From: a virus
Taxonomy: Duplodnaviria > Caudoviricetes
Direction: 5' to 3' (one strand)
Length of the DNA: 64,000 nucleotides
IMG/VR virus record: IMGVR_UViG_2524614838_000004
Span: 1 to 64,000 of that record
This document shows positions 10,284 to 36,585 of this stretch, piece by piece (the first letter of the stretch is position 1; each line of letters starts with the position of its first letter). A program made the translations under genes and the position numbers. Below the pieces are notes generated by a model that made no database searches, was not told where the DNA came from, and saw only the letters and a list, made by a program, of their open reading frames with translations.

Positions 10284-10302
10284 CCGAGATTAAGGAGGAT
10301 TT

Positions 10303-10635
10303 ATGAAACAGAATCCTTGTAGATATTGTGCTTTGAGTTGGGAGCATAATGGCAAACATTACCCGTCTTACGAATCGCCTTGTGCTGAATGTGAAAATAT
10401 CAAGAAACACAAGGATTATCTGAAATCTAAACGATTATTTATGGAAGGTGTTCCAATCACATCACTTGATGAACTTTTGAAACAAAAGTGGGTTATGTGG
10501 TATCACCAGACAAGGCACATTGAAGTCATTAAACATACGCAGTTATCAACTGTCTTGCATTGGCTTGACAGGGGAGCATTTCATAAGGCAATCAGAAAAG
10601 AAAGTGAGAAAAACAGTGAACCAGGAATTAGTTGA
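10303..10635 (+). CDS. Hypothetical protein
   Basis: RBS AAGGAGG; CRYC and CAEC motifs. Confidence 0.6.
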   Translation: MKQNPCRYCALSWEHNGKHYPSYESPCAECENIKKHKDYLKSKRLFMEGVPITSLDELLKQKWVMWYHQTRHIEVIKHTQLSTVLHWLDRGAFHKAIRKESEKNSEPGIS

Positions 10636-23231: not shown

Positions 23232-24149
23232 ATGCTTTTCTATGAATATTTTAAAAGTTGGTTCGAAGCATACAAAGCCGGAACGGTGGCAGAAGTGACA
23301 TTGTCAAAGTACCGGATGACATATATGCGGCTGAAAGAACTGGCGCCTACACTGGATTTAAAAGTAATAGGGCGCAGGGAGTATCAGCAATTAATAAATG
23401 ACTATGCGCTTACGCATGAAAAGCAGACAGTCATGGACTTTCATCGTCAGCTGAAAGCGTGTCTCCTGGACGCTTACGACGAAAAGTTAATAGAGCGGGA
23501 CCCTACGCGGAAAGTAGCAATCCGGGGGAAAATGCCGGCAGAAAAGAAAATGAAATATCTCAACAGAGATGAACTGGAAAAACTGCTGAATGTGTTGCCG
23601 CTTCATCCTGATCGGGTCGGATTCGATTGGCTTATATTGCTTCTGGCTAAAACGGGACTAAGGTTTGCGGAGGGGTTAGCATTAACGCCGAATGATTTTG
23701 ACTTTGCCAATAAAAAGATAAGGGTAAACAAAACCTGGAATTATAAATCTGCAAATGGAAGATTCATGCCTACCAAAAATCAATCCTCTGTAAGGGAGGT
23801 AACAATAGATTGCGGTTTGGCAGAACAGTTTGAGCAGTTGATCAAAGGATTTCCGGCAGATGAACCGTTTTTCTTTGATAAGGCAGACCGGATATTTAAT
23901 TCTACCTTGAATAATTATCTGGAAAGATATTGCAGAGAGGCAGGCGTGCCGGTGATATCCGCACATTGTTTAAGACATACACACGCTTCCGTCCTGCTTG
24001 CTGCCGGTGTGTCAATTCCGAGCGTTTCTAAAAGATTAGGACATTCGAACGTCACTACAACGCAGGATACATATATCCACATCATACGGGAGCTGGAGGA
24101 AAAAGATAAGAATAAAGCAATGGACTGCATGTCCAGTTTGTGCGGATAG
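23232..24149 (+). CDS. Tyrosine recombinase 1
   Basis: KTGLRFAEG, HCLRHTHAS, RLGHSNVTTTQDTY (R-H-R-H-Y). Confidence 0.95.
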   Translation: MLFYEYFKSWFEAYKAGTVAEVTLSKYRMTYMRLKELAPTLDLKVIGRREYQQLINDYALTHEKQTVMDFHRQLKACLLDAYDEKLIERDPTRKVAIRGKMPAEKKMKYLNRDELEKLLNVLPLHPDRVGFDWLILLLAKTGLRFAEGLALTPNDFDFANKKIRVNKTWNYKSANGRFMPTKNQSSVREVTIDCGLAEQFEQLIKGFPADEPFFFDKADRIFNSTLNNYLERYCREAGVPVISAHCLRHTHASVLLAAGVSIPSVSKRLGHSNVTTTQDTYIHIIRELEEKDKNKAMDCMSSLCG

Positions 24150-24160
24150 GAGGTGGCGGA

Positions 24161-24661
24161 ATGTCGCGTGATGTTTGGGGGACTTATGTTTCTCCTGATG
24201 ATTACATAAATGCCGCAAAATCGGGAATATGCAGGCAGACGGTTAATTCCAGGATTGCAATGGGGTGGAAAGCAAAAGATGCCATTTCTGCCCCTGTAAT
24301 GGCAACGAGTGAAGAATACAAGATATATAAGCAATTAGCAGAAAAGAATGGGATTGGTGCAAATACCTACAAGCGGAGAACACAAAGAGGCTGGACGCTG
24401 GAGGCCGCAGCAGTTACACCACTGGTCAGCAGAGCGGAAAGCATTGAAAGAACCAGAAAGACGAGGCAAAGGGTAATCCCCAAAGACTTGGTAATTCAAG
24501 CAGAAAGTAACGGGATATGTTACCACACTCTATACAGCCGCCTGCAGATGGGGATTCCAGCGGATCAGGCTGCAACAAAACCAGTGGTTACTGCCAAAGA
24601 CCACCCATGGAGGAAAGCCGAAACTGATAGAATAAACTTAATAATGCAAAAGCAATGCTAA
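24161..24661 (+). CDS. Protein with three repeated small HTH-like units
   Basis: Repeats of GI...T...R...GW....A...P. Confidence 0.6.
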   Translation: MSRDVWGTYVSPDDYINAAKSGICRQTVNSRIAMGWKAKDAISAPVMATSEEYKIYKQLAEKNGIGANTYKRRTQRGWTLEAAAVTPLVSRAESIERTRKTRQRVIPKDLVIQAESNGICYHTLYSRLQMGIPADQAATKPVVTAKDHPWRKAETDRINLIMQKQC

Positions 24662-24709
24662 TAAATAAAGAAAATTGGGATATCCGGCTGAGCCGGAGGA
24701 AGGGGGAAC

Positions 24710-24889
24710 ATGGAAAATAATAAAGTTACTGTCCGTTGGTGGGATGGTTATATGGAGGATTTTGAAGCTACAGAGGTGAGATTTGGGAGTGATTTATTAT
24801 TCCTTCGCTTGACAGATGGAAAGAACAGACAAATACCGTTACGTGGTGTAAGGTGGTTCGGAATGAGCCAGGAAAGTCACCAAAACTGA
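24710..24889 (+). CDS. Hypothetical 59-aa protein
   Basis: RBS; below the ORF-track cutoff. Confidence 0.6.
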   Translation: MENNKVTVRWWDGYMEDFEATEVRFGSDLLFLRLTDGKNRQIPLRGVRWFGMSQESHQN

Positions 24890-24906
24890 AATTTGATTTA
24901 TAAAAA

Positions 24907-24954
24907 GAAAGGAGCCGGAACCTTTCCGGAAAACAGGCGCGCCGGGTTCCTTTC
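24907..24954 (+). promoter_or_regulatory. SD-sequestering twin-palindrome leader, copy 1
   Basis: GAAAGGAGCC/GGTTCCTTTC stem enclosing TTTCCGGAAA and GGCGCGCC; ATG 6 nt after the stem. Confidence 0.7.
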
Positions 24955-24960
24955 GAAAAA

Positions 24961-27468
24961 ATGGATTATTTAAAGTTTTTGAAATCCAAGATTGAGATTG
25001 CAACAGATACGGGTTTTACAGTAGATCGTAGCAGTATCAACAAGGCATTGAAATTTCATCAGAGTGACGCAGTTGCATGGGCTCTGAAGGGCGGTTGTCG
25101 GGCATTATTTGAAAGTTTCGGATTGGGAAAAACTGTTCAGGAAATAGAATTCTGTTATCAGGTTATAAGAAAGTTTGGCGGCAAAGCCCTTATTGTTTGT
25201 CCATTAGGTGTTAAGCAAGAATTCATAAGGGATGCTCAAAATATTCTCGGTTATGAAAAGCCAGTATATGTTAGGACTATGAAAGAAGTTGAAGCTGCAG
25301 GTGCCGGTATTCTGATTACAAATTATGAACGTGTTCGTGATGGAGATATTGATCCAAGCTACTTTACGGCAACGTCTCTTGATGAAGCCAGCGTCCTCCG
25401 GAGCTTTGGAAGTAAGACTTATCAAACCTTTTTGGACAAGTTCAAAGAGGTTCCGTATAAATTGGTAGCCACGGCTACGCCTAGCCCGAACAAATACAAA
25501 GAACTGATACACTACGCAGGATATTTGGGAGTTATGGATACCGGGCAGGCTTTGACAAGGTTCTTTCAGCGGGATTCTACAAAGGCCAATAATTTAACCC
25601 TATACCCGAACATGGAAGATGAGTTCTGGTTATGGGTGAGCAGCTGGGCATTATTTATTACAAAGCCTTCTGATGTAAATCCAGATTATTCAGATGCTGG
25701 ATATATTCTTCCACCTTTAGATGTAAGGTGGCATGAACTTCCTATAAATTACGGAGACACAGCAGATAGAGATGGCCAGTTCCAGTTATTTAACGAAGCG
25801 GCGGCCGGCCTGAAAGAAGCAGCGCAGGTAAAGCGTGAGAGTATTGATGTTAGAACGGAGAAGATGAAAGAGATTCTTGAATCTGATCCGGAGGCTCATT
25901 TTATTATATGGCATGACCTGGAAGCGGAGAGACTTGCAATTAAGAAAGCGGTACCTGGAGTTGTTGATATTTATGGTTCCCAGGATTATGAAACCAGGGA
26001 ACAAAGGGTTATAGACTTTTCAGAGGGCAGTTGCCAGTATTTCGCAACAAAAAAAGAGTTATCAGGATCTGGTTGCAATTTCCAGAAACATTGTCACAGA
26101 GAAATATTTCTGGGGATCGATTATGAATTTAATGACTTTATCCAGGCTATTCACAGATGTTTCCGTTTCCTCCAGGATAAGTCGGTAATTATTGATATTA
26201 TCTACATGGAAAATGAGAGAGAAATAAAAGACGTATTGCTGGAAAAGTGGAAGAATCACAATCACATGGTTGAAAAAATGATTGAGATTGTGAGAAAGTA
26301 TGGATTGTCAGCAGCAGGGAAAGAAAAACGCTTGGAGCGGAAGATGGGAGTTGAAACAGTGAAGGTCAAAGGGAAGAAGTATACGGCAGTTTACGATGAT
26401 TGCGTAGAAGAAACAAGGCGTATGGAAAGTAACAGTGTTGGCCTGATTCATACATCAATACCTTTCGGAAACCATTACGAATATTCGGCCAATTATAATG
26501 ATTTCGGGCATAATCAAGATACAGAAAGATTCTTTGAGCAGATGGATTTCCTTACACCGGAACTTTTTAGAATGCTGCAACCTGGACGAGTGGCCGCTAT
26601 TCATGTTAAGGACCGTGTGCTTTTCGGAAATGCAACAGGGACCGGAATGCCAACTGTAGAGCCGTTTCATTCACTTTGTATTAGCCATTATATGAAACAT
26701 GGCTTTCAGTATTTTGGCATGATTACGATTGTTACAGACGTGGTGAGGGAAAACAATCAAACATACCGGCTTGGGTGGACCGAGCAATGCAAAGACGGTT
26801 CTAAAATGGGAGCAGGTTGTCCAGAATATATTTTACTCTTTAGAAAACTACCTACTGACAGATCAACAGCTTATGCAGATGTCCCTGTTCATAAGACCAA
26901 AGAAGAATATACCAGGGCGCAATGGCAGATAGACGCTCACGGATTTTGGAGATCTTCAGGTGACCGCCTTATTAGAAAAGAGGAATTAGAAAATGTTTCA
27001 GTAAAGAATCTTCAGGCTATTTATCGAAAATATAGCAGGGACCATGTTTATGATTATAAAGAGCATGTAGAGCTGGCTAAGAAACTTGATACGGAAGGTA
27101 AACTCCCAGCTACATTTATGGTGGTTGCGCCGGGAAGCTGGACATGGGAAGTATGGGACGATATTAACCGTATGCGCACCTTAAATACTACACAGAGCCG
27201 GAGAAGAGCACAGCTCCATGTATGCCCTTTACAGCTGGATATTGCAGAACGAATTATTAACAGATATTCCAACGAAGGCGACCTTGTAGCGGATCCGTTT
27301 GCGGGCCTTATGACGGTTCCTATGACTGCTATTAAAATGGGTCGGAGAGGATATGGAATCGAATTAAATCCGGATTATTTCAGAGATGGCGTTGGATACC
27401 TGCAGGCGGCAGAGGACAATATAGATACACCTACATTGTTTGACTTTATGCCAGAAATAATTAGTTAA
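24961..27468 (+). CDS. SNF2-like helicase fused to an N4/N6 DNA methyltransferase
   Basis: FESFGLGKT, LDEAS, ATATPSPN; TSIPF and DPFAGLMT methylase motifs. Confidence 0.85.
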   Translation: MDYLKFLKSKIEIATDTGFTVDRSSINKALKFHQSDAVAWALKGGCRALFESFGLGKTVQEIEFCYQVIRKFGGKALIVCPLGVKQEFIRDAQNILGYEKPVYVRTMKEVEAAGAGILITNYERVRDGDIDPSYFTATSLDEASVLRSFGSKTYQTFLDKFKEVPYKLVATATPSPNKYKELIHYAGYLGVMDTGQALTRFFQRDSTKANNLTLYPNMEDEFWLWVSSWALFITKPSDVNPDYSDAGYILPPLDVRWHELPINYGDTADRDGQFQLFNEAAAGLKEAAQVKRESIDVRTEKMKEILESDPEAHFIIWHDLEAERLAIKKAVPGVVDIYGSQDYETREQRVIDFSEGSCQYFATKKELSGSGCNFQKHCHREIFLGIDYEFNDFIQAIHRCFRFLQDKSVIIDIIYMENEREIKDVLLEKWKNHNHMVEKMIEIVRKYGLSAAGKEKRLERKMGVETVKVKGKKYTAVYDDCVEETRRMESNSVGLIHTSIPFGNHYEYSANYNDFGHNQDTERFFEQMDFLTPELFRMLQPGRVAAIHVKDRVLFGNATGTGMPTVEPFHSLCISHYMKHGFQYFGMITIVTDVVRENNQTYRLGWTEQCKDGSKMGAGCPEYILLFRKLPTDRSTAYADVPVHKTKEEYTRAQWQIDAHGFWRSSGDRLIRKEELENVSVKNLQAIYRKYSRDHVYDYKEHVELAKKLDTEGKLPATFMVVAPGSWTWEVWDDINRMRTLNTTQSRRRAQLHVCPLQLDIAERIINRYSNEGDLVADPFAGLMTVPMTAIKMGRRGYGIELNPDYFRDGVGYLQAAEDNIDTPTLFDFMPEIIS

Positions 27469-27482
27469 AATATTATCCAATA

Positions 27483-27664
27483 TTGAATAATATCCGTATG
27501 TGAAGTATAATAAATCAAAATGATGAAGGAGTATGAAAGGAGACAGAAATTTGAAGAATTGGGTTAAATGGGTGAACGTAGCAGCTGTAGTTTCTATTGG
27601 AATTTGTATTACTAAGAATCTTAATTGCTTATGGGCGTTTTTCATTCCGGTTTTCTGTGAATAA
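27483..27664 (+). CDS. Micro-moron: own promoter plus a 43-aa hydrophobic peptide (ORF 27533-27664)
   Basis: TTGAAT-17-TATAAT at 27483-27511; RBS; hydrophobic peptide. Confidence 0.55.
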
Positions 27665-27680
27665 CGGAGGTATACCGGCT

Positions 27681-27836
27681 ATGAGATATAACTTACATAT
27701 GTTTTTACGAAAGACAATAATGCGGTGGACCAGGAAGAACTGCGGTACCTGCAAGCATTATGACGGAAGATTTGGTGATGAGACCTGCTTTACCTGTGAG
27801 CGGAGTATAAAGGCGGTGGGATATGAACGAAGGTGA
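27681..27836 (+). CDS. Hypothetical Cys-containing protein
   Basis: RBS GGAGG; CGTC and CFTC. Confidence 0.55.
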   Translation: MRYNLHMFLRKTIMRWTRKNCGTCKHYDGRFGDETCFTCERSIKAVGYERR

Positions 27837-28242
27837 ACTTAGGAAATACTGGTCCGCTTATACGGACGCTTGGAAACTTATGAAGAATCGTCAGATGGTA
27901 AGACCGGAGCATGTAGCACAAATGATAAAGAAGCATGAGAATCCTGTCATGAGTAGGCTGTTCTGCCTGGTGGTCTGGCAAGAAATAAAAAGGATTAAAG
28001 CTGGGGGCACTTCTCTTCTGGATAAGCAGTACGAAGAATGCCTTACCGGAGCATGGAAACTGTTTAAGAAGTACAGCGAACCGAATGATACAGATGAATA
28101 CTGGAATGGTCTTGTTGACATGATTGGAGCCATGTCCAAAGAATATAGCAATTGTAGTTTTATAAGCAATCTCCTGGTCCATGTTACGCTGGAAGAACTT
28201 GAGCGGATTTGGAGAGCCAGTAAGAAAGTAGGTGAAAAATGA
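27823..28242 (+). CDS. Hypothetical protein with an internal duplication
   Basis: YTDAWKLMK / LTGAWKLFKK repeat. Confidence 0.65.
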   Translation: MNEGELRKYWSAYTDAWKLMKNRQMVRPEHVAQMIKKHENPVMSRLFCLVVWQEIKRIKAGGTSLLDKQYEECLTGAWKLFKKYSEPNDTDEYWNGLVDMIGAMSKEYSNCSFISNLLVHVTLEELERIWRASKKVGEK

Positions 28243-28625
28243 AATTACAGGCCACAGAACATAGTTATTATTGTAGCGAAAGCAATCATTATGTCGGCAA
28301 TCAGCATGGTGAAAATTTCGGAAGATGCGAATATGATACGTGGGCAGATTTTCAAGAAGAATGGCTTGATTCAGACGGCGTAAGCATTGATATTGACTAC
28401 AATCTATGTTTTCGCTTTGATATTGAGCAGAAACACAATCCAGATACAGATGAGCCGATAGCTGAATTTGAGCTTTGGTTATTCTTTATGCTACAAAGAA
28501 AAGGGATTTATCGCCCGGTATGGATTAAGCATATTGATGAAAAGGACATGCCTGGAATAAAAGGCTTTTTGGAAAAACAATGGCACTACATACAGTACCA
28601 ATGGAACGAGTTGATTGAAAAATAA
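28239..28625 (+). CDS. Hypothetical protein
   Basis: Coupled ORF. Confidence 0.65.
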   Translation: MKLQATEHSYYCSESNHYVGNQHGENFGRCEYDTWADFQEEWLDSDGVSIDIDYNLCFRFDIEQKHNPDTDEPIAEFELWLFFMLQRKGIYRPVWIKHIDEKDMPGIKGFLEKQWHYIQYQWNELIEK

Positions 28626-28626
28626 T

Positions 28627-28671
28627 GAAAGGAACCGTTCCCCGGCCGGGAGAGTGTACACGGAACCTTTT
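28627..28671 (+). promoter_or_regulatory. SD-sequestering twin-palindrome leader, copy 2
   Basis: GAAAGG-AA-CCGT/ACGG-AA-CCTTTT stem enclosing CCCGGCCGGG and GTGTACAC; ATG 6 nt after the stem. Confidence 0.65.
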
Positions 28672-28677
28672 TGAAAA

Positions 28678-30066
28678 ATGAAAGATGTAATTATAGACTA
28701 CTTCTGCGGTGGTGGAGGTGTAAGTGTTGGTGGACAGATGGCCTGGGGGCGTAGCTTCGATTTTGCAATTAATCATAGTCCTTCAGCCATATCAATGCAC
28801 AAATACAATCACCCGTATACGCACCATTTTCCAGAAGATATCATGAGAGTAAAAATTGGAAAATTTCTTTCATGGGGGCAGAGAGTTAGCTTTGTTTGGG
28901 CAAGTCCAGACTGTACCTCGCATTCGAATGCAAAAGGAGATAAGCCCATAGAAAGAGGATTGCGAATACTTCCAATGGGTGTCTGGAAGCAATGCAAACT
29001 GATTTTAAAAGCAACAGGGAAAGTTCCAGAAGTTATTATGATGGAAAACGTTAAAGAAATCCAGAAATGGGGACCTCTAGATAAGAACGGTAAGCCCATT
29101 AAGGCCCGTGAAAGTGAGTATTACAATAAATTTATTCGCCTTATGAAAGCTTTTGGGTATGAGTTTGAATGCAGGGTTTTAAATTCTGCTGATTATGGAG
29201 CGCATACAGCCAGGGTGCGCTGGTATGGACAATTTAGGTGTGATGGTAGGCCGATTGTTTGGCCGGAGCAGACACATTCTAAAGGTGGTGTAAATGGCCT
29301 AAAGCCTTGGGAGCCGATTAGTCAGGATATTGATTTTACGGATTTAGGCAACCCTATATTTACTAGGAAACGGCCTTTGAAAGATAAGACACTGAGCCGT
29401 ATCGCAGCCGGGATTAAAAAGTTTGTAATTGATGATCAGAACCGGTTTATTCTTCCGGACAAAGTGGCGGCGCCGTTTTTAATACAATATCATTCCGAAA
29501 CAGTAAAGGGAGAGGTCCGGGGCCAGAGTTTAAAGGAGCCAATACAGACTATTGATACTGCAAACCGTTATGCTCTTGTAACCTGTTTCCTATCGAAGTT
29601 TTATAAGACAGGAACGGGCCAGACAATAAATGAGCCAATCCATACGATAACCACCTCTCCTGGGCATTTTGCTTTGGTGTCAGCTTTCTTGATTAAATAT
29701 TACAGCGGAGACATCGGCCAGAGTTTAAACGAGCCAATCCATACGATTGTCACAAAGGACCGGTTTGGTCTTGTCCTTGTGGTAATAGATGGAGTAACAT
29801 ACCAAATCATAGATATATGGTTCCGAATGTTGAAGCCTGAAGAACTGAAATTGGGACAGGGATTTCCAAAGGATTATATCATTGATTTTAAAATGCCGAA
29901 TGGTAAGCCTTATCCTAAAACAATGCAGGTTGAGAAAATCGGAAACAGCGTTGTCCCCCTGATGGCAGAGAAGCTTTGTTATACAGCTTGCCCTTATCTA
30001 AAGGTGGGGGAACGAATGCCGAACATGAGGATTGATGATAGCCAGGAGCAGCTTAGGTTTGCTTAA
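28678..30066 (+). CDS. C5-cytosine DNA methyltransferase
   Basis: DYFCGGGG, WASPDC (PC-equivalent), MENV, ADYGA..AR.R, KIGNSV. Confidence 0.9.
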   Translation: MKDVIIDYFCGGGGVSVGGQMAWGRSFDFAINHSPSAISMHKYNHPYTHHFPEDIMRVKIGKFLSWGQRVSFVWASPDCTSHSNAKGDKPIERGLRILPMGVWKQCKLILKATGKVPEVIMMENVKEIQKWGPLDKNGKPIKARESEYYNKFIRLMKAFGYEFECRVLNSADYGAHTARVRWYGQFRCDGRPIVWPEQTHSKGGVNGLKPWEPISQDIDFTDLGNPIFTRKRPLKDKTLSRIAAGIKKFVIDDQNRFILPDKVAAPFLIQYHSETVKGEVRGQSLKEPIQTIDTANRYALVTCFLSKFYKTGTGQTINEPIHTITTSPGHFALVSAFLIKYYSGDIGQSLNEPIHTIVTKDRFGLVLVVIDGVTYQIIDIWFRMLKPEELKLGQGFPKDYIIDFKMPNGKPYPKTMQVEKIGNSVVPLMAEKLCYTACPYLKVGERMPNMRIDDSQEQLRFA

Positions 30067-30096
30067 TATGATTGAAGAATATCAGGAGGTTGAGAC

Positions 30097-30324
30097 ATGA
30101 AATATAAATGTATAAAGCAAATGTGCTTAGAAAAGGTAGATGGGGACGGCTTCAGCATTCCGAATGAATACGGAATTGTGCCGGTAGGTTCTATCTGGCA
30201 TGAAGATAAATCAAGCATTATTGGTGGTGAAATTCATCTGGAATGCGCAAGCGGAGCAGAGGATTTGGGCTGGATAGAAATTTCTAAAAAGGATTTGGAG
30301 GAGTTTTTTGAATTAATAAGCTAA
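30097..30324 (+). CDS. Hypothetical protein
   Basis: RBS AGGAGG. Confidence 0.6.
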   Translation: MKYKCIKQMCLEKVDGDGFSIPNEYGIVPVGSIWHEDKSSIIGGEIHLECASGAEDLGWIEISKKDLEEFFELIS

Positions 30325-30344
30325 GGCTTTTGAAGAGGTGAGCT

Positions 30345-30821
30345 ATGAGCAGTAGGCCAGAGGTTACAAAATTTTTATCATTGTCTATCCAGAAGCACAT
30401 AAACCCCAATAATGACCCAAGAATTTACTGGGCGGCAGAAGTGACATTTGACTATGCCACCAGTAATGCGGTCCGGGTCGATTATATGAAATTTAAACCA
30501 GTAAACAATACGGTATCTGGTATTGAAAAGGGGGACTTCTACTGCTTTGAAGTGAAGTCCTCGGTGGAAGATTTTCATTCAAAGAACGGACATAATTTCT
30601 TGGGCGATTTCAATTATTATGTCATGCCTGAGGAAGTATACGAAAAAGTGAAGAATGAAATACCGTACAGAATCGGGGTATATGTTCCTGATGGAAAGAA
30701 TTATCAGGGCGATTGGTATGATTTAAAATCTGTCAAGAAAGCCGTGAGGAAAGACAGGGACAGATCGGTACCAGAAATGTTGCTAATGATGTTTCGGTCA
30801 GCAACAAGGAGAAGTGTCTAA
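30345..30821 (+). CDS. PD-(D/E)xK nuclease-like protein (MmcB-like)
   Basis: AEV...RVDY...CFEVKSS.EDF pattern. Confidence 0.6.
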   Translation: MSSRPEVTKFLSLSIQKHINPNNDPRIYWAAEVTFDYATSNAVRVDYMKFKPVNNTVSGIEKGDFYCFEVKSSVEDFHSKNGHNFLGDFNYYVMPEEVYEKVKNEIPYRIGVYVPDGKNYQGDWYDLKSVKKAVRKDRDRSVPEMLLMMFRSATRRSV

Positions 30822-30858
30822 TCTGGAATTCTCTTAGCAGTGGAAGAAAGGAAGCATT

Positions 30859-31125
30859 ATGGAAATAGGCGAATTAGATATGCATTGTGGCAACTGTGGT
30901 GTAATTGATTATTGCACAGAACCGTTTGAAACGCCAGCTTTATGCTGTGTCAGTGCACTTGCTGATGTTTCCGAAGAAGATTATATTCAGCTGGCAGAAG
31001 AAATAACGTCAGAGGAAATTGAAGAGAAACAGCGGCAGTATGAAGAAAATGGTGTGGGCTGGACGGACGAGGATAAAGGGGCTATTTGCGATATCGTACT
31101 GGAAAAATTGTTTTCAAAAGAATAG
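30859..31125 (+). CDS. Hypothetical acidic protein
   Basis: RBS; CGNC motif. Confidence 0.6.
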   Translation: MEIGELDMHCGNCGVIDYCTEPFETPALCCVSALADVSEEDYIQLAEEITSEEIEEKQRQYEENGVGWTDEDKGAICDIVLEKLFSKE

Positions 31126-31154
31126 GATTTAAAAGAAATATTGTTCCTTGATAA

Positions 31155-31183
31155 TTGAATATTGATGGTTGGTGGTGTATAAT
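31155..31183 (+). promoter_or_regulatory. Moron A promoter containing the left 17-nt inverted repeat (31157-31173)
   Basis: TTGAAT-17-TATAAT; GAATATTGATGGTTGGT. Confidence 0.75.
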
Positions 31184-31217
31184 TATCTTATCAAATTTTA
31201 TACAAGGGGGATAAGAA

Positions 31218-31589
31218 ATGGAGCAAAGAATTATTAATGGTCAAGCATATGCACACCCGTTTGAGTACATCATGCGTGACGTATTCCAATGTGACAGAGG
31301 CGGAGCTTGCGGAATGGCAGATGCTGATTTTATTAGAAAGCATCCTTATACAGCGGTAGCAGCAACATGTATGTACATATATGCTAATGCCGACGAGAAG
31401 AAAAAAGAAGAAATAGAGAAATTTCTTGAAGATGCCTATTTTCATTTCCAATTTGACTTAGACACACTTCTCTCATTTGAAACGAATGAGAAAGAAATTG
31501 ATGGTGGATCATATACTTTGAGTTATGATAACGGAGAAGCAACAATTGAGGCGCTTGAAGAAAAGTTCAGGAATATTTGTAAGAAATAA
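31218..31589 (+). CDS. Moron A, hypothetical acidic protein
   Basis: Own promoter, RBS and terminator. Confidence 0.75.
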   Translation: MEQRIINGQAYAHPFEYIMRDVFQCDRGGACGMADADFIRKHPYTAVAATCMYIYANADEKKKEEIEKFLEDAYFHFQFDLDTLLSFETNEKEIDGGSYTLSYDNGEATIEALEEKFRNICKK

Positions 31590-31593
31590 TTGT

Positions 31594-31629
31594 AAAAACC
31601 AACTATCAATATTCGGTAGTTGGTTTTTT
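31594..31629 (+). terminator. Moron A intrinsic terminator containing the right repeat (31598-31614)
   Basis: ACCAACTATC-AATATTC-GGTAGTTGGT followed by a T-run. Confidence 0.8.
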
Positions 31630-31641
31630 GTTACCCAAAAT

Positions 31642-31689
31642 GAAAGGAGGTCGGAGCTTCTGGCCAGGAGACACGTGTCGGCTCCTTTC
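31642..31689 (+). promoter_or_regulatory. SD-sequestering twin-palindrome leader, copy 3
   Basis: GAAAGGAG/CTCCTTTC stem enclosing CTGGCCAG and GACACGTGTC; ATG 6 nt after the stem. Confidence 0.7.
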
Positions 31690-31695
31690 GAGAAA

Positions 31696-32790
31696 ATGTA
31701 TTTGCTTAAAGAAGGATTGAAATTCCCTAAAACAACGTTTGTCAATATGAAACATATGCCATTTGAGATAAAACCATCTTTTAGCGCACAGCGCATAGTA
31801 CAGTGGCACGAACATTGGGGTGGATTAATTTACATAGCATTTAGCGGAGGTCTTGATAGCACGGTGTTGGCTCATTTAGTCTGCATGACTTATCGAGAAT
31901 ATGGACTGACCGGAGAGATACCATTGGTTTTTTGTGATACTGGAGTGGAATTCCCGGAGATTAGAAAATTTGTTAAGGAATATGTCGCATGGTTGAAAAC
32001 CCAATTTCCAGAGCTGACTATTACTTTAAAAATAATGTACCCAAAACATAATTTCAAGTGGGTGTGTGAGCATAAAGGATTTCCTCTGATCAGCAAAGAT
32101 ACAGCCAGTAAGATTAAAAAGTTAAGACATGGAAAACTAAGCGAGAAGTATCGCAATTATCTTCTTAATGGTGATGAACGTGGAAAATTTGGCATGTTGG
32201 CTAAAAAGTGGCATTATCTAGCGGATAAACAGATTACAGAAGAGGATATTTCGGACATATGCTGTGAGATTCTTAAAAAAGAACCTTTCAAGAGATATGT
32301 AAAGGAGACAGGTAGATATCCATTTATCGGGATTACACAGGACGAGGGATTTCGTCGAGAAAATCAGTACAATCATACGGGGTGCAACGTATATGATGGT
32401 ACTACCATTAAAAGTCAACCGTTAGGATTCTGGACGAATCAGGATGTTCTACAGTATAAAATGGAGAATGAAATTCCCATTTGCTGTGTATATGGAGAGG
32501 TAAGAAAGAATCATTGTGGGATATATGAATTAACGGGAGAACAAAGAACTGGTTGTATCATATGTGGCTTTGGCTGTCATCTGGAAGCAGAGCCGAATCG
32601 CATACAACGCCTGGGAACTTCTTCTATTGATACACATAGAGAAGTATATAATTGGGGAATGAGAATTGAGAACAATGGAGTTACTTATCAAGAAGCATTG
32701 AAACATTGTGGCGTAGCTACGGAGACCTGGGAATCGATTGGGCAAATGAATCTTGCTGATTTTCTGAATGAAGAAAGGAAGGAACTCTGA
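31696..32790 (+). CDS. PAPS-reductase-family (PP-loop) protein
   Basis: AFSGGLDSTVL, CDTGVEFPE, CC..LKK, QRTGC..CGFG. Confidence 0.85.
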   Translation: MYLLKEGLKFPKTTFVNMKHMPFEIKPSFSAQRIVQWHEHWGGLIYIAFSGGLDSTVLAHLVCMTYREYGLTGEIPLVFCDTGVEFPEIRKFVKEYVAWLKTQFPELTITLKIMYPKHNFKWVCEHKGFPLISKDTASKIKKLRHGKLSEKYRNYLLNGDERGKFGMLAKKWHYLADKQITEEDISDICCEILKKEPFKRYVKETGRYPFIGITQDEGFRRENQYNHTGCNVYDGTTIKSQPLGFWTNQDVLQYKMENEIPICCVYGEVRKNHCGIYELTGEQRTGCIICGFGCHLEAEPNRIQRLGTSSIDTHREVYNWGMRIENNGVTYQEALKHCGVATETWESIGQMNLADFLNEERKEL

Positions 32791-32791
32791 A

Positions 32792-32995
32792 ATGGCACAA
32801 GTAAAATGGTTAGATGAAACCTGTAACTGCTGTGGTAAGCCAATTAACAGTTGGGATAAGCGAATATCAAAGGTCCTGGCCTATAAATATCCTTGCTGTG
32901 AGAAATGTATAGCAAAGGAGTATGATGTGGCAGTAGGAGCTCTTAGAAGCCGCATGGAGGATTATTTTGGCATTAGGCCATGCATGGGGATATAG
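32792..32995 (+). CDS. Hypothetical zinc-binding protein
   Basis: CNCC and CEKC motifs. Confidence 0.6.
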   Translation: MAQVKWLDETCNCCGKPINSWDKRISKVLAYKYPCCEKCIAKEYDVAVGALRSRMEDYFGIRPCMGI

Positions 32996-32998
32996 GTA

Positions 32999-34186
32999 AT
33001 GGAAAAAGAATATAATTTACTTACCAAAGAGCTTTTGGCGGAGGGATACACGGTTGATAATTTCCCTGCTTATGTGAGGATATGCACTTCCAGATTTTCA
33101 GGAGACAATCCACTTTTTAATTTGGCAGGCGGATTTGAATATCTTCCATCATACAGAGATGAATTTATATATAAAACAGGCTGTGGAATGTATGTAAAAG
33201 GGAGCCATGTACTTAGCGATATGAGCTATATGGGTATTGATTGGAGCCATGAAAATAACTGCCCGGTTATCCGTTGTCCTTATGATAGAGCTGATTGTCC
33301 GGATAATAATGAGATTTTACATGGTTTGCAAGGCGGTGGCCTGTGTATCCAATGCTGGTGTGTCTGTCATAAGACCCAAGAAATATATGATTATGAAAAT
33401 AGTTTGGAAAAGGCCAATAAAGAACGCAACGATGAAATAGACCGAAAATACAAAGAATATGTTGAAACTCACCATGGCAGAGTGTGCCGCAATCACATGG
33501 GTTATGATGAGCGAATAAGGACGTGGAGCCAGTATTATGAACCTTCCAGATGTGCTAAAATTTGCTATAGTCAGGACGGATATTGCCCTATACTTGGAAA
33601 ACAGTTAAACAAGAAGCGTGGAAATGTTTATTATGATTTAAAAACCAGTTGTCGCCGGCATGATGATACAATCTTCAATGGGGACCATTCGGTCTCAGTC
33701 GAAAAAGGTATCCGGTATTTTGACCGTCCTGTTAGTATGGATATTTGTGAGGCATTTATTAAAGTACAGTCTGGTAATATTTATGAACGCCTAAAACGTA
33801 ACGTGCGTTCCGAGCAATTTTTTGACAAGAGTTATTCCATAGAGGTCTTGAATATTCGAGCAGAATCGAAACCCAGCAGAGATTTATTACAAGACTTGCA
33901 GGACATAAAAGACGGAATTCAGGTTACTCATGCAACCGATGTGGAAAAGCTTTCTAAGAGTGCAAAAAGAGAACAGCGCCAGATTACGAAGCAAAAGAAA
34001 ATTGAGAAATTAGAAAAGAAAATACTTGAGGTCGGATATGAGAATTTTGAAGAGTTTAGCCTTGATAAGATACATGCTGATAAATGGCTTTCGGAAGAAC
34101 GAATAGAAGAGTTGGAAAATATACGAAAACAGAAGATAAAAGAAGAACAGGAGAAACCAGTACAGTTAAGCCTGTTTGATTTGTAA
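32999..34186 (+). CDS. Cys-rich hypothetical phage protein
   Basis: 395-aa ORF ending PVQLSLFDL (clamp-binding-like motif). Confidence 0.7.
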   Translation: MEKEYNLLTKELLAEGYTVDNFPAYVRICTSRFSGDNPLFNLAGGFEYLPSYRDEFIYKTGCGMYVKGSHVLSDMSYMGIDWSHENNCPVIRCPYDRADCPDNNEILHGLQGGGLCIQCWCVCHKTQEIYDYENSLEKANKERNDEIDRKYKEYVETHHGRVCRNHMGYDERIRTWSQYYEPSRCAKICYSQDGYCPILGKQLNKKRGNVYYDLKTSCRRHDDTIFNGDHSVSVEKGIRYFDRPVSMDICEAFIKVQSGNIYERLKRNVRSEQFFDKSYSIEVLNIRAESKPSRDLLQDLQDIKDGIQVTHATDVEKLSKSAKREQRQITKQKKIEKLEKKILEVGYENFEEFSLDKIHADKWLSEERIEELENIRKQKIKEEQEKPVQLSLFDL

Positions 34187-34379: not shown

Positions 34380-35417
34380 ATGAATGGACAAACTGTTAAA
34401 GCACAGGTTATCAATAATATTATTGTTGCTATGGCAGGGCATGTGGCGAAAGATGTTCTGGATATTCTTCATCAGGTGATTGTAAAAGAATTTGTAAATG
34501 TCAATATGGAAGAGATAACAACCCTCCCGGCAGAGTACCAGAATGATACGGATCAGAAGAATAAGTATATCATTCAGCTTTTCATCGTCAAGAAGAAAAT
34601 CAAGGATAATACAAAGGAAGCGTATCTTAGTGCCATTAAGCGTCTGATTACCCTGATTGATAAGCCATTGGACCGAATAGAGGAATCCGATATCAGCTAT
34701 TATCTGTCCTGGTATGAGAAGCGGAATATTAATGCCGGCGGTAAGAAGAATCAGGCCGTGACCGTGAATAATGAAAGACGTTTCCTGTCAGCATTCTACA
34801 CCTGGATGAGGAAGGAAAAGTTAATCAGTGACAATCCTGTGGAGGCAACAGATCCGCTGAAAACAATTCGAAAGCCGATTGATTATTTTAAACCAGAAGA
34901 GATGGCGAAGATGAGGGACGCATGCAAGAATTCTAGAGATCGCGCATTAATTGAAGTGTTGCGGAGCACCGGGGCCAGAGTGGGAGAGTTGGTTGAGATC
35001 ACCCTTGACCAGATAGACTGGAATACCGGGGATATTATGATTCAGGGGGAAAAGAATGACAGGTATGAGCCTATATTCTTAGATGATGAAGCGCGGTATT
35101 ATTACAGGCAGTATCTGGATTTAAGGAATGATGAAAGTCCGTTTATGTTTCCACAATGTAGGGCACCTTATTGGAAAATGTCAACGTCTGGAATCCGGAG
35201 CGTTATAAAAACCATTGGCAATCGAGCAAAGTTGAAATGCCGAGTGTATCCTCATAAATTGCGTAAAACTCTGGGAATGAGCCTTAAAAACAAGGGAGTG
35301 GACCTTGGCACCATTCAGGAGATTTTGAGGCATTCCAGTCCGTCAGTAACGGCTATTTATTACGCTCAATCTACACCGAATACATTAAGAAGTGTGAGAG
35401 AGAGGTGTGCAGGATAA
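34380..35417 (+). CDS. Tyrosine recombinase 2 (with N-terminal SAM-like domain)
   Basis: STGARVGE, PHKLRKT, ILRHSS..VTAIY. Confidence 0.9.
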   Translation: MNGQTVKAQVINNIIVAMAGHVAKDVLDILHQVIVKEFVNVNMEEITTLPAEYQNDTDQKNKYIIQLFIVKKKIKDNTKEAYLSAIKRLITLIDKPLDRIEESDISYYLSWYEKRNINAGGKKNQAVTVNNERRFLSAFYTWMRKEKLISDNPVEATDPLKTIRKPIDYFKPEEMAKMRDACKNSRDRALIEVLRSTGARVGELVEITLDQIDWNTGDIMIQGEKNDRYEPIFLDDEARYYYRQYLDLRNDESPFMFPQCRAPYWKMSTSGIRSVIKTIGNRAKLKCRVYPHKLRKTLGMSLKNKGVDLGTIQEILRHSSPSVTAIYYAQSTPNTLRSVRERCAG

Positions 35418-35788
35418 TGGGAAATAATACAAGAAATCAATTAAAAAATCTGGTTACCATTAATGCTGCAATCGAAGAAGCAGGGGAAGAAATCCAGATG
35501 GTGCAGAAGGAAATGAATATTCATGGCCATGATAAAAAGTATGTTTCTGCTTTGAATGCGCTGAATCAAAAGATTGTATATTTTCGGTATCAGAAAGTCA
35601 AAGTCTGCATGGATTTGTATGATAAAATTGAAGCCATTGAAGATGAACAGGAGAAGCGGTTGCTTAAGTACCGATATATAAGAGGTTACCGATGGGAGAT
35701 TATTGCTGATAAGATGGGATATAGTGTCAGGCAGGTTTTCAATATACACAATAAGGCCATCAAGTTACTTTGCATAGAAGTGCAGTGA
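35417..35788 (+). CDS. ArpU/RinA-like transcriptional activator 1
   Basis: LLKYRYIRGYRWEIIADKMGYSVRQVFNIH sigma-4-like HTH. Confidence 0.75.
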   Translation: MGNNTRNQLKNLVTINAAIEEAGEEIQMVQKEMNIHGHDKKYVSALNALNQKIVYFRYQKVKVCMDLYDKIEAIEDEQEKRLLKYRYIRGYRWEIIADKMGYSVRQVFNIHNKAIKLLCIEVQ

Positions 35789-35829
35789 ATCTTTGTGATA
35801 TGCTCCAAATTATAAAGGAGGCTTATTGC

Positions 35830-36585
35830 ATGAACAGTTTTATTAGTTGGATTGGTGGAAAGAAGTTATTGAGAAAGCAGATACTGGAACAGTTCCCGGA
35901 TCAGGATTCCTATAACCGGTATATTGAGGTATTTGGCGGAGCTGGCTGGCTATTATTTTCAAGAGATAAACATGCTCCTTTGGAAGTCTTTAATGATGTC
36001 AACGGGGAATTGATCAATCTATACCGGGTGGTTAAATATCACCCGGAGCCATTGCAGAAAGAGATGGAATGGTTATTAATGTCTCGCGAGCAATTCTTTG
36101 ACGAACTGAATCGAAACACCAGAGGAGTGACGGATATACAACGCGCTGCTAGGTACTTCTGTTTGATTAAGGAAAGTTTTGGAACAGACTGCAGATCATT
36201 TGGAGTGAGTTCCAGAGACATACATAAGGCAGTGGATTATTTGAAAGATGTATCAAATCGATTGAACCGCGTCGTTATTGAAAACCAGGACTTTGAACGA
36301 CTGATAAAAACATATGACAGGCCAGATTCGTTATTCTATCTGGATCCTCCATATTACGAAGCAGAGAAATATTATCCGGACCGGTTCAATCCGGAGGATC
36401 ATGAAAGGCTGTGTAAATGCCTGAGTGATTTAAAGGGAAGATTCGTTTTATCTTATAACGATTGCCAGCAGATACGTGATTTGTATGAGGGATATACTAT
36501 CATTGAAGTTGACAGAATGAATAATTTGTTGAACAAGGATAGGAGCAGGAGATACAAGGAGTTGATCATAAAGAATTTCAAATAA
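35830..36585 (+). CDS. Dam-like (D12 class) N6-adenine methyltransferase
   Basis: WIGGKK, EVFGGAG, NDVNGEL, FYLDPPY. Confidence 0.92.
   Translation: MNSFISWIGGKKLLRKQILEQFPDQDSYNRYIEVFGGAGWLLFSRDKHAPLEVFNDVNGELINLYRVVKYHPEPLQKEMEWLLMSREQFFDELNRNTRGVTDIQRAARYFCLIKESFGTDCRSFGVSSRDIHKAVDYLKDVSNRLNRVVIENQDFERLIKTYDRPDSLFYLDPPYYEAEKYYPDRFNPEDHERLCKCLSDLKGRFVLSYNDCQQIRDLYEGYTIIEVDRMNNLLNKDRSRRYKELIIKNFK

Follow-up and report, generated by a model that had tools for sequence, protein, structure and literature searches.

A leader of ~55 nt precedes three DNA-modification genes in the window, by which we mean the whole 64,000-nt stretch of DNA analysed. Taking family and proposed mechanism together, we hold with moderate confidence that such leaders form an undescribed family of cis-acting mRNA elements gating the translation of phage DNA-modification genes. 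Members occur on several hundred contigs of gut phage and metagenome origin and share a constant design. A strong Shine–Dalgarno (SD) sequence, AGAAAGGAG, which is a near-perfect match to the 3′ end of 16S rRNA, is paired with a pyrimidine 3′ arm; an inner arm is able to pair with that 3′ arm in place of the SD; and two perfect palindromes of 8–14 nt, an A-rich tail and the start codon complete the element. The start codon lies ~48 nt 3′ of this sole SD, after a tail that is itself devoid of an SD. The copies in the window (W1, W2 and W3) are composed as follows.

24907..24916, + strand: W1 SD and 5′ arm of the outer helix, GAAAGGAGCC (sequence; paired in the MFE structure)
24917..24922, + strand: W1 inner arm GGAACC, alternative partner of the 3′ arm (helix P2; folding energies, covariation across classes)
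24923..24932, + strand: W1 palindrome 1, TTTCCGGAAA (sequence; self-duplex −12.5 kcal/mol, hairpin 0 kcal/mol)
24936..24943, + strand: W1 palindrome 2, GGCGCGCC (sequence; same word in other phages, classes C and D)
24945..24954, + strand: W1 3′ arm/anti-SD, GGTTCCTTTC (sequence, RNAfold, family helix pairing)
24955..24963, + strand: W1 A-rich tail GAAAAA and start codon (ATG 24961; sequence)
24961-27468, + strand: gene downstream of W1, 835 aa, SNF2 helicase-N6/N4 methylase (Pfam SNF2-rel_dom and N6_N4_Mtase)
28623-28625, + strand: stop codon of the ORF upstream of W2 (sequence)
28627..28680, + strand: W2, whole element, before the C5 methylase gene (28678-30066; sequence, fold, Pfam)
28627-28636, + strand: W2 SD arm, GAAAGGAACC (sequence)
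28637-28641 with 28662-28666, + strand: W2 inner helix, GTTCC with GGAAC (sequence, fold)
28641-28650 and 28654-28661, + strand: W2 palindromes, CCCGGCCGGG and GTGTACAC (sequence)
28662-28672, + strand: W2 3′ segment, GGAACCTTTTT (outer pairing AAAGG/CCTTT; ATG 28678)
31597..31629, + strand: putative terminator-like hairpin with T-run, directly 5′ of W3 (read from sequence)
31642..31698, + strand: W3, whole element, before the PAPS-reductase-like gene (31696-32790; sequence, fold, Pfam)
31642-31649, + strand: W3 SD arm, GAAAGGAG (sequence)
31653-31657, + strand: W3 inner arm, CGGAGC (sequence, fold)
31660-31667 and 31670-31679, + strand: W3 palindromes, CTGGCCAG and GACACGTGTC (sequence)
31680-31689, + strand: W3 3′ arm, GGCTCCTTTC, followed by the tail GAGAAA and ATG 31696 (sequence)

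The original prediction placed three hairpins with a sole and paired SD at these positions. Both the sequence and RNAfold confirm them, in a family larger than first reported, and no second SD was found near the ATGs of W1, W2 and W3 (three of three starts). Pairing of the full SD arm, also predicted, does not extend to W2, where the SD pairs only through AAAGG/CCTTT and the inner helix GTTCC/GGAAC is separate. The ATG had been put 6 nt after the stem, which fits the tails of W1 and W3 and fails as a general rule, the tail measuring 5–10 nt family-wide. Likewise, the distance between palindrome centres is as described in W1, W2 and W3 (12, 12 and 11 nt), while family-wide it ranges from 10 to 15 nt. 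The upstream ORF ends immediately before W2 and leaves no room for a promoter, so that control of this copy is post-transcriptional.

A chance origin of the window copies is excluded. Palindromes of at least 8 nt occur in the window once per 262 nt. A loose scan of the 6.38-Mb genome returned 1660 SD-pairing hairpin candidates, only eight of which hold twin palindromes of at least 8 nt in the loop; three of the eight are W1–W3, and one further hit is a copy read in reverse. The whole-genome scan gave three leader copies, all within one prophage. In other genomes the flank pattern had ~115 chance matches, with twin palindromes in two. The single-sequence fold z-scores of W1–W3 are weak (−0.8 to −1.1), so that thermodynamics alone would miss these elements.

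RNAfold pairs the SD in all of W1–W3 (−13.9 to −18.2 kcal/mol), and the MFE structure does so in all 15 classes (−13.8 to −20.3 kcal/mol). Folds leaving the SD free cost 5.8–11.2 kcal/mol extra and use the inner helix in most classes; with the SD of W1 held free, the MFE structure is GGAACCU/GGGUUCC at −11.4 kcal/mol. Among 44 distinct family members the outer helix is 97.7% paired. It alternates between G•U and G–C at two positions where the opposite strand would have A•C mismatches, and these G•U pairs show that the sense RNA is the strand in which the structure is read. Pairing of this kind, across the 15 classes and 44 members, is what defines generic SD-sequestering leaders, in which translation would be repressed by the pairing. 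Between classes, the inner arm and the 3′ arm change together (GAACC/GGTTC, GAGAC/GTCTC, GGGAC/GTCTC with a G•U pair, GGAGC/GCTCC and GGAAGCT/AGCTTCC), and the flipped form GTTCC/GGAAC is also present.

The proposed search for homologues was borne out: covariance model R2 detects the leader in 7 of 150 sampled host-family genomes, and palindromicity is conserved across the family. A flank-only pattern retrieves more than 60 members from 114 viral contigs, and all 120 stem-anchored metagenome matches carry the element. In line with the failure to match a named RNA family, cmscan against Rfam 15 (24000-33000, E up to 10) gave no sense-orientation match over W1–W3, the sole overlap being an antisense STnc290 hit of 20.5 bits against a gathering score of 60, and our literature search found no paper that describes the leader. 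The SD, the anti-SD and the tail make up the invariant positions, while the loop content is wholly different between classes; the conserved unpaired ligand pocket of a riboswitch was accordingly not found. In Murimonas intestini, a leader homologous to W2 has a different stem but retains both words, and copies inside one phage always differ, giving two or three distinct word pairs per phage. The nearly complete constancy of sequence within a class, linker bases included, exceeds what pairing needs and could reflect recent spread instead of selection.

The loop words are the most unusual part of the leader. The family has ~15 distinct first words and ~16 distinct second words, all perfect palindromes of at least 8 nt, in agreement with the claim that the words differ between copies yet stay palindromic. 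The second word has nine different central tetranucleotides, and all nine are palindromic. Selection on self-complementarity, as had been suggested, is supported by near-identical leaders whose palindromes differ only through double compensatory substitutions. At least four such changes are independent, one of them at the central dinucleotide: CCGGCCGG becomes CAGGCCTG or GCGGCCGC, CGATATATCG becomes GCTATAGC, GTGTACAC becomes GCATATGC, and GAGCTC becomes GACGTC by a swap of the two central bases. In ~250 class-A copies we found no internal single mismatch, only end-position changes and two indel singletons. Preservation of the palindrome through compensatory change is the signature expected of kissing-loop or palindromic dimerisation elements, and the RNA may form dimers.

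Genes that follow the leader almost always serve DNA modification, as had been proposed, and it was correctly noted that the Dam-like gene of the window (35770-36585, Pfam D12 class) lacks it. Downstream types comprise N6_N4, D12 (Dam-type) and C5 methylases, SNF2 helicases or helicase-methylases and PAPS_reduct proteins, together with one weak Radical_SAM-like gene and small ORFs translationally coupled to a C5 methylase. The idea that different palindromes confer gene specificity is not supported, since one identical leader (class A) is shared by genes of at least five families, and SNF2-methylase genes that are themselves near-identical have different leaders in front. Close homologues of the PAPS-reductase gene (64–69% identity) have a plain ribosome-binding site in the leader's place, so the leader is dispensable for this gene.

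We regard a translational lock with loop words that pair between RNA molecules as the best reading of these data, although in our estimate it could equally turn out right or wrong. The default fold would hide the SD, so that potentially harmful enzymes are made sparingly. Capture or release of the SD would let the 3′ arm switch to the inner arm, folding the ~35-nt insert into a compact stem and bringing the SD to ~12 nt from the AUG in what would amount to a split ribosome-binding site. The effective spacing in this proposed 'on' fold (~12 nt plus the helix end) is long, which counts against it. Most likely the palindromes would pair with those of a second leader RNA, giving dimers or chains, because a single strand cannot pair the words along their whole length; intermolecular pairing would also be the most economical reason for full palindromy. 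It would superimpose sequence-specific control on the lock, either tightening or relieving it. The further suggestion that dimerisation opens the SD finds no favour in nested cofold models, which keep the SD paired in the dimer and so offer no evident route to activation, kissing complexes lying outside such models.

The main alternative, which we consider rather unlikely, is that each palindrome forms a mini-hairpin within one molecule and that the hairpins and the closing stem make a compact three-way junction, stabilising the SD lock or shortening the SD–AUG spacer with no pairing in trans. RNAfold indeed predicts such junctions for classes A and F and for W3, U•G pairs sometimes lengthen the stems (classes A, W3 and F), the linkers are A-rich as in many junctions, and the first word has covarying flanks on either side of an unchanging GGCC or CCGG core, as in a stem capped by a conserved tetraloop. 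The class B word (14 nt) and the class F words (12 and 12 nt) are long enough for real mini-hairpins in a three-way junction, and intramolecular folding would explain this part of the data. Most palindromes are, however, too short for hairpins and are predicted to be stable as self-duplexes: nearest-neighbour energies for the isolated words give −6.6 to −26.7 kcal/mol for the self-duplex and ~0 for most hairpins (0 for ~12 of 20 words), many words (GGCGCGCC, GTGTACAC, GATATATC, GCATATGC) allowing only a 2-bp stem with a 4-nt loop. Moreover, a hairpin loop need not be self-complementary, yet palindromy extends to the centre in all of the ~30 distinct words, and in one variant CG has taken the place of the central GC. 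A role of the palindromes as DNA methylation or restriction sensors had been put forward as well and appears improbable. In this reading, methylation or restriction targets, or operators, would signal how far the phage genome is modified and regulate the modification genes in return. In its favour, the element is tied to modification genes of unrelated folds, Type II recognition sites are typically perfect spacer-less palindromes of 6–8 bp, and phage Mu mom is controlled partly via Dam sites. Against it, methylase sites would require neither the covarying bases that flank the GGCC/CCGG core nor words of 12–14 nt; word identity shifts between nearly identical phages; five different enzyme families stand behind the same leader; and the core 4–6-mers are common elsewhere in the prophage, with no sign of avoidance. 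The location between SD and AUG, always in sense orientation, and the stem G•U pairs meaningful only in RNA, together with the variable words and W2 abutting a stop codon, also set the leader apart from methylation-sensitive restriction–modification promoters or operators of the C-box or CfrBI type.

Another account, to which we give little credence, takes the element chiefly for a portable mosaic-boundary or recombination module, or a mobile insertion into a ribosome-binding site, that spreads among phages, its palindromes being upheld by template switching within inverted repeats and not by functional selection. Homology between phages does end exactly at the element: in 104 distinct class-A contexts the element shows 98% identity, against unrelated DNA upstream (0.29–0.34 identity) and 84–75% identity in the downstream coding sequence. 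The identical class-A element occurs before different genes, close homologues have a plain AAAGGAG-N7-ATG where W3 has its insert, and half of the second W3 word (GACACG) matches their plain spacer. Against this, the element always has one orientation, provides the sole SD of its gene, set at a constant distance from the start, and is confined to one functional gene class; copies in one phage are never alike, and mutational bias could not create the SD/anti-SD and inner-arm complementarity. Nor does a recombinase travel along, as the two tyrosine recombinases of the window occur in 1 and 7 of 182 element-bearing loci. Three copies only, always sense, that carry the gene's SD and lack co-conserved recombinases are not those of an integron attC, REP or MITE-type repeat. 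It is similarly doubtful that the loop words are read by a dedicated trans-acting factor that opens the lock, be it a phage small RNA or a small RNA-binding protein like Com of phage Mu. In phage Mu a hairpin keeps the mom modification gene closed until the zinc-finger protein Com opens it, and several small Cys-rich ORFs lie in this part of the window (27597-27836, 32768-32995 and 30859-31125). Yet no adjacent zinc-finger activator emerged, small CxxC...CxxC ORFs within −1200 to +600 nt being found in 4 of 101 contexts, below the background of ~0.14 per 1.8 kb, and beyond the modification genes no window gene is common to the 182 loci. Several factors would be needed for the two or three word pairs of one phage, and no word has a second cis copy that could serve as RNA partner.

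Com–mom nevertheless resembles the lock with intermolecular word pairing that we prefer, in that an mRNA hairpin over the translation start, as found here, buries the ribosome-binding site of a phage DNA-modification gene which is harmful if mis-expressed and lies inside a longer transcript. It differs in having no sequence or Rfam relationship with the present leader and no known twin palindromes, whereas the present leader has its SD ~48 nt from the AUG and an alternative inner helix. Genes 38 and 25 of phage T4 have split ribosome-binding sites, in which a hairpin between SD and start codon brings the SD to a workable distance. P2 would do so here, as covariation and folding energies suggest, although the T4 SD is not known to be sequestered by the same 3′ arm and the T4 sites have no known palindromic loop words. 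Palindromic dimerisation loops are known from the HIV-1 DIS (GCGCGC or GUGCAC) and oskar mRNA, where loop-exposed self-complementary words are likewise variable between lineages yet palindromic and find their full partner only in a second RNA copy. Those are single 6-nt hairpin-capping loops of eukaryotic or viral RNAs involved in packaging or transport, while the phage leader has two words of 8–14 nt in one large loop and its dimerisation is predicted. The guanidine-II (mini-ykkC) riboswitch is also a small SD-controlling element with two hairpin-like modules whose self-complementary loops pair loop to loop. It needs conserved ACGR loops and a ligand, whereas the present words differ in every class, so that the leader has no conserved ligand pocket, and the Rfam search at E up to 10 gave no match to it. 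The survival of the palindromes through paired mutations points to an unusual control element of phage DNA-modification genes that may act by RNA self-pairing.

Inspection of the sequence finds the three leaders W1, W2 and W3 at exactly the positions given in the original prediction, and all follow a common plan. An extended Shine–Dalgarno (SD) sequence, (A/T)GAAAGGA(G/A), is succeeded by a short inner arm, a first palindrome, a linker of 2–3 nt and a second palindrome, and then by a 3′ arm of pyrimidines that complements the SD, an A-rich tail devoid of an SD, and the ATG. The window, a prophage that also encodes a terminase, a DnaB-like helicase and an SbcC-like protein, carries them ahead of the following genes.

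Leaders in the window and the genes that they precede
W1, 24907-24963; gene at 24961-27468, SNF2-helicase/N6_N4 methylase
W2, 28627-28680; gene at 28678-30066, C5 methylase
W3, 31642-31698; gene at 31696-32790, PAPS-reductase-family protein

RNAfold pairs the SD in all three leaders. Shuffle z-scores of the folds are only −0.8 to −1.1, so that the case for the leaders rests on architecture and comparison and not on energy. The density of palindromes of at least 8 nt in the window is one per 262 nt. A loose scan of the host, a 6.38-Mb single-contig genome, for SD-pairing hairpins preceding a start codon returned 1660 candidates, only 8 of which had two loop palindromes of at least 8 nt; three of these 8, together with the reverse reading of one of the three, are the window copies. 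An enrichment of TTCCGGAA in the window was only apparent and equals the genome-wide frequency.

W2 starts one base past the stop codon of the ORF before it, within an operon whose best promoter-like site lies 1.1 kb upstream, so that control must be post-transcriptional. A promoter scan gave shuffle background and tied no promoter to the elements. A terminator-like hairpin (AAAAACCAACTA...TAGTTGGTTTTTT, 31597-31629) ends 12 nt 5′ of the W3 leader, and expression of the PAPS-reductase-like gene would thus need read-through or a promoter that escaped detection. Other features of this region deserve mention. The DNA-modification block in mid-prophage is flanked by two tyrosine-recombinase (Phage_integrase) genes (23232-24149 and 34380-35417). 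Small Cys-rich CxxC...CxxC ORFs are interspersed among the modification genes (27597-27836, 30859-31125 and 32768-32995); the one at 32768 overlaps the PAPS-reductase-like gene at its end, and its product may be a partner subunit. At 35405-36585, the gene for a D12 (Dam-type) methylase and an ORF of 127 aa, which weakly matches sigma-70 region 4, overlap each other; the pair recurs in 18–24 of the element-bearing loci and has no twin-palindrome leader in the window.

The leaders belong to a real, widespread and previously undescribed family. When IMG/VR was searched with a pattern of the flanks only (GAAAGGA...CCTTTYGARAAA), more than 60 of the 114 matches listed were true members, all with twin palindromes, while the same pattern gave mostly chance matches in a one-genome-per-species control, with twin palindromes in 2 of about 115. 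A metagenome scan anchored solely on the stems of class A (classes being leader versions with different words, as we call the palindromes) yielded at least 120 matches, many from human gut metagenomes by record name. With a covariance model derived from the members, the element was detected in 7 of the 150 genomes sampled from the host family. The classes misalign in a plain MAFFT alignment, so that RNAalifold found no structure there, and a hand-given structure with covariance-model alignment was used instead. In Murimonas intestini DSM 26524, which represents another genus of the host family, a C5-methylase homologue has a leader of the same design with a different stem and the same two words (CCGGCCGG core and GTGTACAC). 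A second gene there has a nearly W2-like leader with GCATATGC in place of GTGTACAC, a difference of four bases that leaves the word palindromic. Rfam 15 holds no family resembling the leader, megablast of 24000-33000 against a phage collection gave no match, and no description was found in the literature searched.

Comparison across the family defines what is conserved. In a set of 44 distinct sequences, 97.7% of the SD/anti-SD helix is paired, with two pairs alternating between G•U and G-C; since a G•U pair would be an A•C mismatch on the other strand, the structure is that of the sense RNA. The inner arm, an alternative partner of the 3′ arm, covaries between classes (GAACC/GGTTC, GAGAC/GTCTC, GGGAC/GTCTC, GGAGC/GCTCC, GGAAGCT/AGCTTCC); in W2 and one M. 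intestini leader (G041a) the inner helix is flipped (GTTCC/GGAAC) and coexists with the outer one. In the fold model, forced opening of the SD costs 5.8–11.2 kcal/mol, whereupon most classes fold via the inner helix. These data show, at the level of modelled folds, that the sense RNA locks the SD and has an alternative inner helix. About 15 first words are known, centred mostly on GGCC or CCGG and once on TGCA, and about 16 second words, centred on TATA, ATAT, CGCG, GCGC, GTAC, ACGT, TGCA, AGCT or GATC; every one is a perfect palindrome of 8–14 nt. Among some 250 class-A copies, otherwise 98% identical, the words differ by paired substitutions, CCGGCCGG becoming CAGGCCTG or GCGGCCGC, and CGATATATCG becoming (C)GCTATAGC(A); other word changes affect end positions only, save for two indel singletons. 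In class I, GAGCTC becomes GACGTC, its two central bases being exchanged. The core of the original prediction, selection for self-complementarity, therefore holds: as read from the sequences, the paired changes show that selection acts on the full self-complementarity of both loop words. A hand tally of U•G against C•A next to the first word, at its first flanking position, gave 5 against 5 and is uninformative. Within the SD-sequestering class the leader forms a new variant, in which the property under selection is unusual.

Other features vary. Tail length ranges from 5 to 10 nt, and the distance between word centres from 10 to 15 nt instead of the 11–12 nt first described, which rules out a fixed spacing of one helical turn. 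Nor are the palindromes gene-specific, as had been suggested: an identical class-A leader heads genes for SNF2-methylase, for C5 (329 aa), D12 Dam-type and N6_N4 (280 aa) methylases, and an ORF of 90 aa that is coupled to a C5 methylase, while near-identical SNF2-methylase genes have class A, B or G leaders. Leaders of one phage always differ from each other (the window and contigs L029, L267 and L278). The ORF of ~90 aa (MKNSELKEY... or MTNSELKEY...; contig L080, reverse strand, 10288-10570, also L100 and L126) ends in ...GGAGGTGxTGCCATGA, overlapping the C5 methylase start, so that here the leader controls a coupled two-gene unit. As a general rule translational coupling was rejected, since only about one third of contexts have the end of an ORF within the 12 nt upstream. 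The assignable downstream genes comprise three unrelated DNA methylase classes, SNF2 helicases (or helicase-methylases), a PP-loop enzyme of the PAPS_reduct type, a gene that matches radical-SAM weakly, a small ORF at the head of a methylase operon and, in one case, an HNH endonuclease. In this last case (contig L414, reverse strand, about 1505-2150) the HNH_3 gene, which does not encode a modification enzyme, may be a homing endonuclease inserted in front of the original gene. In most close homologues of the W3 protein (64–69% identity) the gene starts from a plain AAAGGAG-N7-ATG site, indicating that the leader is gained and lost. The plain site (AAAGGAGACACGAG-ATG; contig L389, 1480-1500) has AGGAGACACG in common with the W3 leader interior (31668-31677), a sequence likeness hinting that the leader grew via inverted duplication around an ancestral ribosome-binding site.

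How might such a leader work? The lock would hold translation of the modification enzymes low. On engagement of the SD, the 3′ arm could swap to the inner arm, compacting the insert and placing the SD about 12 nt from the AUG, much as the split sites of T4 genes 38 and 25 have their SD brought near the AUG by folding. As for the words, palindromy runs through their centres, many would leave just 2-bp stems, and hairpin energy is ~0 for most as against −6.6 to −26.7 kcal/mol for the self-duplexes, so that on these models the most plausible partner of a word is its counterpart in a second RNA molecule; with two words in each RNA, closed dimers or chains would be possible. A monomeric three-way junction would suit the classes with long words but accounts neither for 8-nt words nor for palindromic centres. 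The specific mechanisms of the original prediction are unproven and in part contradicted. The idea that dimerization opens the SD found no support, as nested cofold models, which do not cover kissing complexes, keep the SD paired in trans in the dimer. A search for a second cis copy of each word as long-range partner found none above chance.

The gene association would also fit a sensor or operator in duplex DNA. This conflicts, however, with the covariation of the flanks, the 14-nt words, the G•U pairs and the site between SD and AUG; moreover, words turn over between near-identical phages, and palindrome cores are not avoided in the prophage. Identity between contexts is 0.29–0.34 upstream, as for unrelated DNA, 0.98 in the element and 0.84 down to 0.75 in the coding sequence. 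Such a sharp homology break, like the plain ribosome-binding sites of homologues, is what a mobile or mosaic-boundary module would leave, its palindromes being kept by template switching, but the fixed orientation, the SD/anti-SD design and the limitation to one gene class would remain unexplained, and no recombinase is linked. An integron-like reading was likewise rejected, the two window tyrosine recombinases occurring in only 1 and 7 of 182 leader-bearing loci. A Com-like activator is not supported either, since zinc-ribbon neighbours are not enriched near the element.

Tentatively, then, the leaders might be sequence-addressed RNA–RNA self-association switches that set translation by the local concentration of the mRNA in question, a possibility that we rate as rather unlikely at present. 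Transcripts of the same gene would pair as dimers or chains through the two words of each leader, their concentration would be low in the lysogen and high in lytic replication, and different word pairs would prevent cross-talk among the several leaders of one phage.

Phage DNA methylases and related enzymes decide survival of host restriction and rewrite bacterial epigenomes; to our knowledge, how their expression is restrained is understood for very few. The leader is common in phages of human-gut Lachnospiraceae type, and its occurrence with enzymes of unrelated folds signals that DNA-modification genes have a regulatory need in common. For a bacterial cis-regulator the leader has an unusual anatomy, in that palindromy itself is conserved, through compensatory changes within two neighbouring words. 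Even without intermolecular pairing, it provides a new, easily searchable marker of phage DNA-modification cassettes. If the words do pair between molecules, the leader would be a natural, compact and programmable RNA self-association module, and the role of mRNA–mRNA pairing in bacterial gene control would become directly testable. A self-association switch, if true, would represent a new principle of bacterial or phage gene control that requires neither protein nor ligand.
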